IMG/VR virus record: IMGVR_UViG_3300017766_001583
Location: 2,452-66,451 of that record
Length of the DNA: 64,000 bases
Source of the DNA: a virus
Taxonomy: Duplodnaviria > Caudoviricetes
Strand: one strand, 5' to 3'
Part shown: positions 60,175 to 63,946 of the stretch, piece after piece
Numbering within the stretch: position 1 is the stretch's first letter
How the letters are laid out: each line of letters starts with the position of its first letter
Made by a program: the position numbers and the translations under genes
The notes under the pieces: model-generated
The model's input: only the letters and a program-made list of their open reading frames with translations
Database searches by the model: none
What the model was told of the DNA's origin: nothing

Positions 60175-60348
60175 TCAATCTTTCTTGTCAGCGAAGAACA
60201 CACCGATAACGCCAGAAAGGGCCAGACCCGCAGTAATGATCGCCTCGGCCTGGGCGGCGCCAAGCGAAAGACCCAGCGCGGTCAACAGATACACAAAGCC
60301 GCGCCACGTAGAGGCTTCGGCAAGACGGTTAAGGATGTAGGACTTCAT
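60175..60348 (-). CDS. Holin (57 aa, absent from the ORF track)
   Basis: MKSYILNRLAEASTWRGFVYLLTALGLSLGAAQAEAIITAGLALSGVIGVFFADKKD; two hydrophobic segments, coupled to endolysin. Confidence 0.75.
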   Translation of the reverse strand: MKSYILNRLAEASTWRGFVYLLTALGLSLGAAQAEAIITAGLALSGVIGVFFADKKD

Positions 60349-60818
60349 GGTTTTTCCTTTGTTAAGGGTTCTTTGAACAGATCACGTTCGGCTTTGCGCC
60401 GGTTCACTAGGCCGGGAAGGATCCTTCCACCGGCATAAACCCATTTATCAAACTCGGCAGCGGCGGCTTCGTACTCACGCGCATTGAGCTTACGGAGCAA
60501 TGAGCTTCTGGCCAGGGCCGATGCACCCAGATTATAGGTAAAAGATACCAGCGCGTCGAACCTATTCTGGTTAAGCGGGACGCTCACAAGCTGGTTAACT
60601 GAGGTAGCGAACTTCTTAACGTCTTGCTTGAGGTAGTCAAGCGCCTGCACTTGGGTGATTACATCGCCCTTCTTAACCTTGCGCCCGTCGGGGTATACGG
60701 TCGTCCCGTAGCCGATTGTCCAAGGCTCATTACCCGTGCCCGGATCGGGGTAAGCGTTAAGCCGCAGACCCTCGAAGTCTGCGATGAGCTTCAGACCTCG
60801 GGGGGAGATTTGCATCAT
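60345..60818 (-). CDS. Endolysin, GH24 lysozyme
   Basis: IADFEG..L.AYPD...WTIGYGTT...FDALVSFTYNLG...GLVNRRKAE. Confidence 0.95.
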   Translation of the reverse strand: MMQISPRGLKLIADFEGLRLNAYPDPGTGNEPWTIGYGTTVYPDGRKVKKGDVITQVQALDYLKQDVKKFATSVNQLVSVPLNQNRFDALVSFTYNLGASALARSSLLRKLNAREYEAAAAEFDKWVYAGGRILPGLVNRRKAERDLFKEPLTKEKP

Positions 60819-61078
60819 GGCTTATAGATATTGAACAGATTAACCATATTATCGACAAGCTCTTGCTGGTTTGCGTCGTCAGCAGTGATTCTGTCAGATA
60901 TGTAATAGCCTATACGCTGGGCAACCTGCGGAACTCTAGAGGGCGGTATAAACAAAACGCATGCGTAAAACTTACCGGCTTCCCCAAGGGGGGTGTAAGG
61001 CGGGTCTAGAGGTGTAGTTTCCACGTAATCAACATCAGGAAGCGCAGCGAAAGCGGCTATTAAACTTGCCTCGCTCAT
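60815..61078 (-). CDS. Hypothetical protein downstream of the radical SAM gene
   Basis: 87 aa; starts 1 nt after the rSAM stop. Confidence 0.6.
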   Translation of the reverse strand: MSEASLIAAFAALPDVDYVETTPLDPPYTPLGEAGKFYACVLFIPPSRVPQVAQRIGYYISDRITADDANQQELVDNMVNLFNIYKP

Positions 61079-61079
61079 A

Positions 61080-62525
61080 TCAAACCTCCACTACAGCAGA
61101 CTTAGAATAAACTTCTACGCCTTCTACATCTTTCTTTACGGAAACAACCTTTACCGGGAACGCTTTAAGCTTCGGCTTTTCTTCGTGCTTGAAAACATCC
61201 CCCCAAATATCCATGCGCTCAGCGGGAAGATTCTCGGACTCTATCAGCGTCGGAATAAACCCGTTAGTCATCTTAGCGATAGCTAAAGCGAAGAACACAA
61301 CCGCATCGGAATAAGCACTGTCACAGGATGCCGTCCAATTATTGCCCTCGATAAACATACAAGAGCCTTTACAAATATGTAGAACGGGGCATTCGGCGCA
61401 AGCGGGCCTATTACTCCAGTGTGTAGCCGTCTTTATACGGACCGCTTCGATATCTTCAATATTGCCTGCGTGGTGGCTCTCACCATTGTGCGAAACCTGT
61501 ACGTGACTCACGTTTTGGCAGGTTATTACGTTGCCTTTTAGGTCAATCGCAATCGTATTTTCTCGGTCCATTCCACACTTCTGCCCAGTCTTTATAGCAG
61601 GGCTATGAGAAAGAACGTCTTTAATAAACCCGTCTATTTTTAAAGGGGCTAAGTAAAACCCTATTTTAGCTTCGGTCGAGAATATGTCATTGAAAGCCGT
61701 CTTACGGAATTCAAAATGCTTTTTCTTCGTGTCTAGCAGGTTGTTCATGCCACCATCATCATAGGCATCGACTACGCTCCCTTCTCCGAGAATCACATCC
61801 GGATCGCCCGTAAGCTCAACAAACCATTCGTAGATTTCTTTACGGCTGTAGTTACTTGCCGTAAGCATGGAATTAAAGCTGATGCGTTTGTCTTTACGCA
61901 TCGCTCTGTAGAAATCTAGAATGATTTTTTTCTGTTCGGGATCGTCAAAAGGATCGGGCCCGCGAATAGCTTGGCCGGGGCCATCATGGCTTATTCCAAC
62001 ACTAAAATTATTTACTAACAGCCAATAACATATCTCGGGAGTAAGGATAGACCCGTTGGTGATGATCGAGAATTTAGGTTTCTTTTTCCATGAATCAAAC
62101 TTCTCATGCAGACGCTCGGCTAACGGGCGTAGTGTCTTCCAATAAACAAGCGGCTCACCACCCCAAAACTCGATCCCTAGCCCGCGTTCTTCATTAAATT
62201 CAAGGTTATCAAGCTTCGCCAAGAAGGCATCAATGTCTTTCTTGCTTGTCTCGGGCGCACGTTCTACAAAACGCTGACTGCAATAATCACAAGAATAATT
62301 ACAAGAAAGACCTAATTGAACCTTGAGGATCTGTACATGCTTACTCTTCCTAAGAGGCATGTCTTTGGAAAAGGGTAAAGATAACGTATTGTTTTGATCG
62401 GCTGTAGACGGATTATGAAAAACAAAACCGCTTTCTGTATGGAGAATATTGGTTTCGTTATTATAGAAGAGCTTAAGAGAATCCCCTGTAGAAGGATGCT
62501 TAGCCGTTACAACAAATTTGGTCAT
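61080..62525 (-). CDS. Radical SAM/SPASM-domain maturase
   Basis: CNYSCDYC (CxxxCxxC), FWGGEP, ITNG, SPASM C...GNVITC...CAECPVLHICKGSC...C. Confidence 0.95.
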   Translation of the reverse strand: MTKFVVTAKHPSTGDSLKLFYNNETNILHTESGFVFHNPSTADQNNTLSLPFSKDMPLRKSKHVQILKVQLGLSCNYSCDYCSQRFVERAPETSKKDIDAFLAKLDNLEFNEERGLGIEFWGGEPLVYWKTLRPLAERLHEKFDSWKKKPKFSIITNGSILTPEICYWLLVNNFSVGISHDGPGQAIRGPDPFDDPEQKKIILDFYRAMRKDKRISFNSMLTASNYSRKEIYEWFVELTGDPDVILGEGSVVDAYDDGGMNNLLDTKKKHFEFRKTAFNDIFSTEAKIGFYLAPLKIDGFIKDVLSHSPAIKTGQKCGMDRENTIAIDLKGNVITCQNVSHVQVSHNGESHHAGNIEDIEAVRIKTATHWSNRPACAECPVLHICKGSCMFIEGNNWTASCDSAYSDAVVFFALAIAKMTNGFIPTLIESENLPAERMDIWGDVFKHEEKPKLKAFPVKVVSVKKDVEGVEVYSKSAVVEV

Positions 62526-62531
62526 CTAATT

Positions 62532-62921
62532 TTAGCCGCAGTCGGGAGGGGCGCAATCGCAAGCGCAATCGTATGTAGCTGTCGTAGTGAAGTTGCAGTT
62601 ATAGGTACAGGCGCAATTGCAGTTAGCTTGTAGCCAATTACGTGTATCGCAGTTCGCGCAATTGACGTTACCACTAATAAAGCAGTTTACGCACTGATAG
62701 ATTCCACAATTACAATTATTGGTGCAGTTGCCGTTATTACAGTTACCGTCCGTGTTTTTCGGGTACCAAGTCATTCCTGCGTAGCTTCTAAGCGCATTAG
62801 GCGAAGGCCGTTGATCGGATCTAGTGTTAGCGTAGACCCACGAAAGCTCAATTGGAAGAGGGTCCCCTGTTTCGTTCTTTATATCGATAAGCGTAATTGG
62901 CGGCGATGCTGGCAGTGTCAT
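62532..62921 (-). CDS. Tail-tip protein with Cys/Asn-rich C-terminal half (putative rSAM substrate)
   Basis: MTLPASPPITLIDIKNE fibre-tip-type N-terminus; 16 Cys in residues 61-128. Confidence 0.75.
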   Translation of the reverse strand: MTLPASPPITLIDIKNETGDPLPIELSWVYANTRSDQRPSPNALRSYAGMTWYPKNTDGNCNNGNCTNNCNCGIYQCVNCFISGNVNCANCDTRNWLQANCNCACTYNCNFTTTATYDCACDCAPPDCG

Positions 62922-63946
62922 GCTTTTCCTTCCAGAGCTTCAATACGGGCGCGAAGGCGCTGCACTTCTTTAGCAAGTTCGACACAAGCTACAAGGGCAG
63001 CATTACCGTAGGAAACCGCCAAAAATCCGTTTTCGCCTTCGTGAACCGCTTCGGGGAGAATCTTCTGTAAAGACTGCGCGGTAACACCAACCTGTCGGGC
63101 ACCGGAACTAATCTTCGTATAGGTACCGTACTTAACACCCGCAAGACCTTCTAGAAATCCTACGTCTAAATCACCCCAGTCTTCCTTAAGACGTTCATCC
63201 GAAGTGGCAATAAAGTCGGTAGCATACACGTAGTCGGCATTTGGATTACAGTAAATACCATCGGTATTATAAAGACTGCTACCCGAGTTCCACACCATCC
63301 GGTATGTACTAGCGGCGTTGCTGTCAGTAACCGTGATGTTGGTTGCGTTTGTTGCGTTTGTTGCGTTTGTTGCAGTTGTTGCACTACCCGCAGTTGTTGC
63401 AAAAGCGACGGATGCCCCGTCAACATACTGCTTGGTCGCCGCGCCTAGCGCAACCGAAGGGTTTGCATTAAGGACGAGCGCCCCGGTCATCGTATCCCCA
63501 GCCTTGTTTACTGGGGTGTAGCCAAGCGCAGTCTGCTTGGCACTGAACGGGTCAATGACGTTCGTCCCGTCGCAGTAAACGATAGCCGTAGCGCCATTAG
63601 CTACAGTGACAGTCGTGCCACTGCCAGTCGTCATAACGATGTTTTGACTGCCGGTTGTGGCGTTACGCACCACATAGAGCTTTTGCTTGGCAGGGCAAAC
63701 AACATTACATGCCACCGATAGCGTGCCGAGGATCCTTAGGGCCATCGACCTAGATTCATAAGCCGTTCCATTTGGGGAGCTTACTAGGGTGTACGATGCG
63801 CCGCTAACAGTAACGTCGGACTGCGCTGCGATAGCCTGCTCTAACAGCGTGCCAAGATTGTTGTTAGTGGTGTTGCCCCAGTTTCCAGATTGCTCGCCGG
63901 TCTGGATTAGCTCAATGCCTAGCAGGCTTGAATACGATGACGGCAT
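62918..63946 (-). CDS. Tail fibre with C-terminal peptidase S74 intramolecular chaperone
   Basis: YTPVNKAGDTMTGAL fibre motif, ATNATNAT repeats, SDERLK...GVTAQ...LAVSYG. Confidence 0.85.
   Translation of the reverse strand: MPSSYSSLLGIELIQTGEQSGNWGNTTNNNLGTLLEQAIAAQSDVTVSGASYTLVSSPNGTAYESRSMALRILGTLSVACNVVCPAKQKLYVVRNATTGSQNIVMTTGSGTTVTVANGATAIVYCDGTNVIDPFSAKQTALGYTPVNKAGDTMTGALVLNANPSVALGAATKQYVDGASVAFATTAGSATTATNATNATNATNITVTDSNAASTYRMVWNSGSSLYNTDGIYCNPNADYVYATDFIATSDERLKEDWGDLDVGFLEGLAGVKYGTYTKISSGARQVGVTAQSLQKILPEAVHEGENGFLAVSYGNAALVACVELAKEVQRLRARIEALEGKA

Follow-up and report, generated by a model that had tools for sequence, protein, structure and literature searches.

A 64,000-nucleotide stretch of a tailed-phage genome (Caudoviricetes; IMG/VR record IMGVR_UViG_3300017766_001583, positions 2,452 to 66,451), called the window below, was found to encode a radical S-adenosylmethionine (SAM)/SPASM enzyme of 481 amino acids (aa) next to a 129-aa protein whose C-terminal part is crowded with cysteines preceded by Asn or Asp, here termed the (N/D)C ladder. 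The virus very probably modifies the tip of its host-binding fibre, since relatives of the enzyme are almost never found without a ladder, and this modification is most likely a cross-linking. We propose that the enzyme links Cys to Asn/Asp by thioethers within the ladder at the C-terminal end of a fibre-tip protein, a reading given a probability of roughly 0.6. The phage record is complete (66,451 bp, direct terminal repeats) and the window covers nearly all of it. The gene layout, coordinates, couplings and cysteine counts of a preliminary description, made from the letters of the window, proved correct in every detail.

Relatives of the enzyme were detected in at least 541 stretches of IMG/VR. 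A pool of 177 fetched loci was reduced to 115 distinct loci by removal of duplicates. A same-strand homologue of the Cys-rich protein was present in 111 of the 115, and three of the four misses concerned loci cut by a contig end. When the search was started from the Cys-rich gene, the enzyme was found in 79 of 80 loci, the lone miss being a contig that ends 156 bp past the gene. Two gene orders were observed, with a short (N/D)C-rich gene directly upstream of the enzyme (n = 50) or a protein of about 300 aa directly downstream (n = 61). The phage backbones are unrelated (an SU10-like podophage, a Paraburkholderia prophage, aquatic phage contigs) and the neighbours other than the pair all change between loci. 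These counts support a functional pair that is near-obligate in both directions. The S74-domain fibre found upstream in the window was rejected as the conserved partner, as only about 18 of 111 loci have one in that position.

Bacterial genomes yielded 149 stretches with enzyme relatives. The best 80 loci were kept (enzymes 32-59% identical), most of them in Burkholderiales (Limnohabitans, Polynucleobacter, Polaromonas, Paraburkholderia) and Alphaproteobacteria. Most of these 80 loci had no match to the 129-aa family profile. A dense (N/D)C ladder occurred in 60 of 1300 upstream same-strand open reading frames (ORFs) of the same loci, whereas only 2 of 5277 other ORFs contained one. The ladder stood at the extreme C-terminus in 49 of the 60, in proteins of 180-615 aa (for example ...YNFNCNCNCNCDCYC). 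Cultured phages show the same arrangement on bona fide tail fibres: gp028 of Achromobacter phage JWF carries ...QNCNCDCNCNCSC directly before a Hint domain, with an enzyme of 43% identity encoded one gene downstream, and the sequence ...NTNCQCGN closes the side tail fibre of Ralstonia phage RSP15. The enzyme travels with the ladder, not with the N-terminal domain of the 129-aa protein.

The enzyme gene is located on the minus strand at 61080-62525. A CxxxCxxC motif (C75/C79/C82, encoded at 62280-62303) is followed by a SPASM motif of seven cysteines (C317-x13-GxxxxC336, C376xxC379x5C385x3C389 and C401, at 61323-61577), and all ten cluster cysteines, together with G331, were invariant in 63 homologues of 34-60% identity. 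The scores for the Radical_SAM superfamily (PF04055, 31.7 bits, cut-off 29.5) and the SPASM domain (TIGR04085, 34.1 bits, cut-off 27) exceed their thresholds, so that the complete SPASM motif of the preliminary description was borne out. The family search it had suggested was run as well and no named family was reached: the PapB model NF047865 gave 82.7 bits (cut-off 340), the QhpD model TIGR03906 61 bits (453), the CrpC family TIGR04463 54 bits (525) and the anSME model TIGR03942 49.2 bits (349), the last aligned over its full length. As every named-family score is far below its cut-off, the enzyme family is a branch of the peptide/protein-maturase SPASM enzymes that has no name; it corresponds to phrog_1802 (3e-61), which has no function assigned.

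The AlphaFold2 (AF2) model of the enzyme has the radical SAM-SPASM (RS-SPASM) fold with a pLDDT (predicted local distance difference test) value of 93.5. Its best Foldseek matches, which are statistically tied, were anSME (top), TigE, a cyclopropyl synthase (PMC10878394), CteB, ChlB and SuiB. Among all NCBIfam models PapB had the lowest best E-value and QhpD the second, in 63 of 63 members. The enzyme is of the complete three-cluster peptide/protein-maturase kind, and its ten cluster cysteines, its fold and the rank of PapB and QhpD by E-value support the proposed reading. The conserved SPASM cysteines number seven, not eight; in the alignment to anSME the extra cysteine of the CGMNGTCTC segment is missing in the phage enzyme. 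Judged by the anSME and CteB structures, seven cysteines would presumably give auxiliary cluster I a vacant position at which a substrate thiol could bind, as is the case in thioether synthases.

It is possible, but unlikely, that the enzyme acts on the ladder and makes something other than a thioether, such as formylglycine from Cys, C-C or C-O links, epimerised residues or a modified Asn. The anSME model aligns full length and anSME heads the structural matches, and SPASM enzymes of very different reactions score alike; yet the PapB and QhpD models outscore that of anSME in every one of the 63 members, the auxiliary-cluster cysteines are seven and not eight, and the 129-aa protein lacks CxPxR, the motif of anSME substrates. 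Nor do the ladders offer the aromatic or Lys partners of the known C-C links: the residues common to all of them are Cys and Asn/Asp only. A further point in favour of other chemistries is given by genes for proteins of about 200 aa resembling 2-oxoglutarate (2OG)-Fe(II) oxygenases (PF13759 in L024; L011:8355-10723), which lie beside the pair in 79 of the 115 loci, many of them aquatic. Because of these adjoining genes, more than one chemistry may operate in the aquatic loci.

The 129-aa protein is encoded on the minus strand at 62532-62921. It comprises an N-terminal domain (residues 1-58, 62748-62921) and the (N/D)C-rich domain (residues 59-129, 62535-62747), the proposed substrate of the enzyme. 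All 16 cysteines are within residues 61-128 and 13 of them have Asn (10) or Asp (3) immediately before them. When the 71-residue core was shuffled, the mean was 4.5 (N/D)C pairs (sd 1.6), and 13 or more were obtained in 0 of 100,000 shuffles. Among the 506 six-frame ORFs of at least 40 aa in the window, the 129-aa protein alone passed the ladder filter. The domain contains seven [ND]xxC motifs and ends in ...YDCACDCAPPDCG. No sequence match to it was found in Pfam, PHROG, NCBIfam or, by profile, the PDB; a full-length tblastn search against cultured phages had no match, and a search of the ESM Atlas with the whole protein returned only its own unnamed viral cluster.

In 120 homologues the Asn and Cys positions were invariant or nearly so and jointly conserved, as fits Asn being a partner in the reaction. 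The Cys-rich part, not the N-terminal domain, is the most conserved part of the family. Multiple Cys-Asn/Asp thioethers are favoured by the restriction of the shared residues to Cys and Asn/Asp, by the NxxC spacing and by the protein cross-linking precedents discussed below. Despite the 120 sequences, AF2 gave a pLDDT below 50 for the (N/D)C-rich domain; locking by thioethers would explain the failure of structure prediction on the unmodified sequence.

Such a failure is also expected of a fold that depends on a cofactor, and the domain contains CxxC-x7-CxxC and CxCxC arrangements. It might then be a metal-binding, Fe-S or disulfide structural domain, with the enzyme serving another substrate or helping to load a cofactor instead of modifying the domain covalently. 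A precedent for metal spines in fibre tips exists in the HxH ladders of T4 gp37, which bind iron along the fibre axis. We regard this explanation as improbable: it leaves unexplained why more than 200 loci keep a complete three-cluster enzyme beside the ladder while the other neighbours change, and why Asn is conserved as strongly as Cys. Moreover, the characterised cases known to us of a Cys-rich protein with an adjacent RS-SPASM enzyme are cases of covalent modification (PMC13692751, PMC10114670).

The fibre-tip identity of the 129-aa protein is supported by its coupling to a fibre with an S74 chaperone domain, by the homology of its N-terminal domain and by the S74 and Hint modules placed right after the ladder in relatives. 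The upstream gene (62918-63946, minus strand) encodes a tail fibre of 342 aa with matches to PHROG tail-fibre families. Its Peptidase_S74 domain (PF13884, 1.5e-10; 41.7 bits, cut-off 22) spans residues 249-302 (about 63041-63202) and is preceded by a typical SDERLK motif. The stop codon of the fibre gene overlaps the start codon of the 129-aa gene in the sequence ATGA.

Residues 1-58 of the 129-aa protein were folded confidently by AF2 (block-mean pLDDT of 76-90 over residues 1-50). At Z of at least 2, the PDB offered one chain only, from phage S16: the N-terminal part of its gp38 adhesin in complex with the tip of gp37, at a weak Z of 2.6. Foldseek against viral models gave one family member and weak gp38-annotated matches with E about 1. 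By hhalign, the N-domain profile matched residues 1-55 and 1-66 of two cultured-phage proteins with probabilities of 96% and 97%. The genes of these proteins, in Pseudomonas phage Cygsa01 and Vibrio phage BUCT194, each begin at the stop codon of the gene before. In Cygsa01 (L258:2406-4837) this preceding gene encodes a 531-aa protein with an S74 domain and the head of the small protein is polyglycine-rich and gp38-like; in BUCT194 (L259:1-4513) it is annotated as tail fibre and the head is beta-rich. The enzyme was not found in either genome, in a search whose positive control worked. The N-domain is thus probably a docking module for post-fibre proteins with exchangeable heads, the enzyme appearing when the head is an (N/D)C ladder, and the MTLP-type domain looks like a general docking module for fibre-tip heads. 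On these homologies, a fibre-tip type of protein is supported as the identity of the 129-aa product.

The first 60 aa had been described as a fibre-tip N-terminus that might double as the leader of a ribosomally made and post-translationally modified peptide (RiPP). The former part was retained. The leader was rejected, since the N-domain heads post-fibre proteins with exchangeable heads in phages without the enzyme. Nor does a build of leader plus core fit the wider family: ladders are also borne by fibres with unrelated N-termini, and the supposed core is the most conserved part, so that the RiPP logic of a variable core behind a leader read by a RiPP recognition element (RRE) was not found. 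The N-terminal 50 aa or so of the enzyme, likewise proposed as a substrate-recognition element, contain a three-strand beta meander (residues 4-30 of the AF2 model) and no helices, and thus no RRE winged helix. This meander is common to enzymes whose substrates, ladders on fibres with other N-termini, are without an MTLP domain, and a role in reading that domain was therefore rejected too.

The family of the 129-aa protein comprises 127 clusters at 50% identity and more than 340 at 90%. In all members the N-domain (consensus MTLPASGxISxS..N.E.G) is followed by the (N/D)C-rich domain. The protein then either ends or continues with an S74 chaperone domain, a Hint domain or an extension of about 170 aa. 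At the junctions, where ...CDCFW is directly followed by SDDTLKD... and ...CACT by CFPAD..., self-cleavage would leave the ladder as the C-terminus. Hint (intein-like) domains directly after ladders were seen in JWF gp028 (L002:2844-4295), P0012, P0128 and P0145, the first Hint cysteine abutting the ladder. Self-cleavage at the Hint domain would here leave the ladder C-terminal, possibly through a thioester intermediate.

The pair could in principle be no virion component at all and yield a RiPP-like product carried by the phage, for example a toxin that is released, a signal or a membrane protein, that happens to be encoded near structural genes. The ~300-aa form, with its hydrophobic C-terminal segment, lies among auxiliary genes (oxygenases and others) and not among fibres. 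We consider this very improbable, however, given that the window gene is ATGA-coupled to a fibre, that its N-domain is that of post-fibre proteins, that relatives carry S74 chaperone domains, a feature of fibres, and that the same ladder closes proteins that are undoubted tail fibres.

For the thioether-linked tip the following mechanism is proposed. The S74 chaperone of the fibre would cleave itself off and the folded N-domain of the 129-aa protein would dock onto the fibre. The C-terminal 70 residues would form a conserved Asn-Cys scaffold, on which the enzyme would act in the infected cell, before assembly, by taking hydrogen from Asn/Asp carbons and bonding these carbons to Cys thiols that an auxiliary Fe-S cluster has bound. 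Several thioether rings of the ranthionine or sactionine type would result, in overlapping N-x-x-C units. The outcome would be a covalently knotted tip, resistant to reductants and proteases, made without any need for disulfide chemistry in the cytoplasm. By inference, the substrate would be the ladder and the product a thioether, and the modified tip would serve as adhesin or as stabilising cap. Somewhat more tentatively, at a little under even odds, many phage lineages may covalently 'zip' a host-binding fibre protein at its C-terminal tip, using multiple Cys-Asn thioethers made by their own radical SAM enzyme.

Parts of this mechanism have counterparts in known systems. The streptococcal enzyme NxxcB, of the RaS-RiPP class, forms a link between Cys and the beta-carbon of the Asn that lies three residues upstream (PMC9389541). 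Compared by motif, the N-x-x-C unit, in which Asn is the acceptor and Cys the donor, is matched by seven [ND]xxC motifs in the 129-aa protein, the NCNC ladder of relatives consists of overlapping NxxC units, and both systems have a radical SAM enzyme that bears auxiliary clusters. NxxcA, however, is a short leader-bearing peptide that receives one link, in contrast to a folded virion-type protein of 129 aa (or much longer) with up to 16 cysteines. PapB, the freyrasin enzyme (NF047865), makes repeated Cys-to-Asp beta-thioethers in a repetitive core. Its model is the best by E-value over the 63 members, but the score of 82.7 bits is far from 340, the PapA motif is C-x3-D and not an (N/D)C ladder, and PapB has an RRE and PapA a leader, neither of which has a counterpart in the phage pair.

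Protein-sized substrates are feasible, as demonstrated by QhpD, which installs thioethers on the whole protein QhpC (PMC10114670), and by CrpC of Methanococcus voltae, which cross-links the whole protein CrpA by thioethers (PMC13692751). Both are RS-SPASM enzymes with Cys-rich whole-protein substrates encoded next door; unlike the phage pair they act on cellular proteins of archaea or bacteria, at C-x-x-Q/D motifs and not in a virus particle. On the structural side the tip adhesin gp38 (phages S16 and T2; PDB 6F45 chain D) is the closest comparison. It too is a small protein right after the fibre, in which conserved short motifs alternate with variable stretches, and the N-domain is homologous to that of the Gly-rich gp38-like protein of Cygsa01, which likewise follows an S74-domain fibre. 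In contrast to gp38, the head is Asn-Cys rich and not polyglycine, Pfam GP38 (PF05268) had no match in the phage genome at E up to 10, and a dedicated modifying enzyme is present, whereas gp38 has none.

No description was found in the literature of a radical SAM/SPASM enzyme acting on a phage fibre, a virion or such a Cys-rich protein. To our knowledge, the maturation of phage tail fibres is thought to be limited to folding chaperones and self-cleavage, and an enzyme-installed tip modification would be a new step in virion assembly. If correct, enzymatic cross-linking would be seen for the first time in a phage structure that binds receptors; it would be a disulfide substitute compatible with the cytoplasm and a counterpart in the fibre to the chainmail of capsids. 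RS-SPASM enzymes would gain a new natural role, on a structural viral protein and not a peptide natural product. The system is widespread, with more than 540 enzyme loci in IMG/VR and prophages in Burkholderiales and Alphaproteobacteria, and the enzyme/ladder pair is carried by the cultured Achromobacter phages JWF and 2-1 and by Ralstonia phage RSP15. It could explain the resistance of such fibre tips to structure prediction and offers a compact, hyperstable scaffold.

Several observations weigh against the thioether-linked fibre tip. The named-family scores are far below their cut-offs and structural neighbours of different chemistry (anSME, TigE, CteB, SuiB) tie, so homology does not fix the reaction. 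The two CxxC pairs seven residues apart in the middle of the domain could bind metal. Conservation of the (N/D)C-rich domain between phages with different hosts is stronger than usual for a receptor-binding head, which makes the term adhesin uncertain. One real miss was encountered among the enzyme loci, a 44-kb IMG/VR contig (L017, identical to L093) with an enzyme of 54% identity, flanks of at least 5 kb each and neither an (N/D)C-rich gene nor a ladder; since the contig is estimated at 12% of its genome, the partner may lie elsewhere. The preliminary description had proposed testing whether homologues always sit beside a Cys-rich gene after a tail fibre, of which the second half did not stand: in about half of the loci, those with the ~300-aa form, the pair adjoins no recognisable tail fibre. 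This form (L010-L020 and many of L027-L100; e.g. L013:5206-6108) is encoded just downstream of the enzyme, and its C-terminal extension of about 170 aa, with no Pfam match, ends in a hydrophobic, transmembrane-like segment.

Besides the oxygenase-like genes, the surroundings of the pair in aquatic phage contigs repeatedly include families of about 120, 181 and 260 aa. These recurrent neighbours may be further tailoring enzymes, acting for example by hydroxylation of Asn/Asp. The window is without any of these families.

In the window, the fibre, the 129-aa protein, the enzyme, an 87-aa protein and the lysis proteins are encoded in a single, tightly packed late operon on the minus strand. Six nucleotides (AATTAG) separate the TAA of the 129-aa gene from the ATG of the enzyme gene, and a gap of one nucleotide the enzyme gene from the 87-aa gene (60815-61078, minus strand), with a GGAGG within the last enzyme codons, just 5' of the latter. 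The 87-aa gene in turn overlaps the start of the endolysin gene by ATGA. Its product, function unassigned, matched no family in Pfam, PHROG or NCBIfam, and the ESM Atlas search was empty. The gene had been counted as part of the inserted set; it was rejected as a cassette member, though translationally coupled, as among the clustered loci it is confined to near-identical relatives of the window (represented by L004 and L009). The first lysis gene is the endolysin gene (60345-60818, minus strand; PF00959 3e-48, phrog_7). It is followed on its 3' side by the gene for a small hydrophobic protein of 57 aa (60175-60348, minus strand; phrog_8494, of unknown function, 1.4e-5), possibly a holin, after which a 700-aa virion protein is encoded.

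The G+C content is 0.41-0.45 over the enzyme and (N/D)C-rich genes (61000-62750) and 0.50-0.56 in the flanking fibre and lysis genes, which suggests horizontal acquisition and fits a module passed from phage to phage. In relatives with a 95% identical enzyme (L005/L009:3281-5611) the fibre measures 776 aa (686 aa in L007) against 342 aa in the window; these longer fibres resemble the window fibre at the N-terminus and are identical to it in the last ~45 residues, the S74 chaperone region. The fibre shaft is swapped or shortened while the chaperone/ladder/enzyme module is retained.

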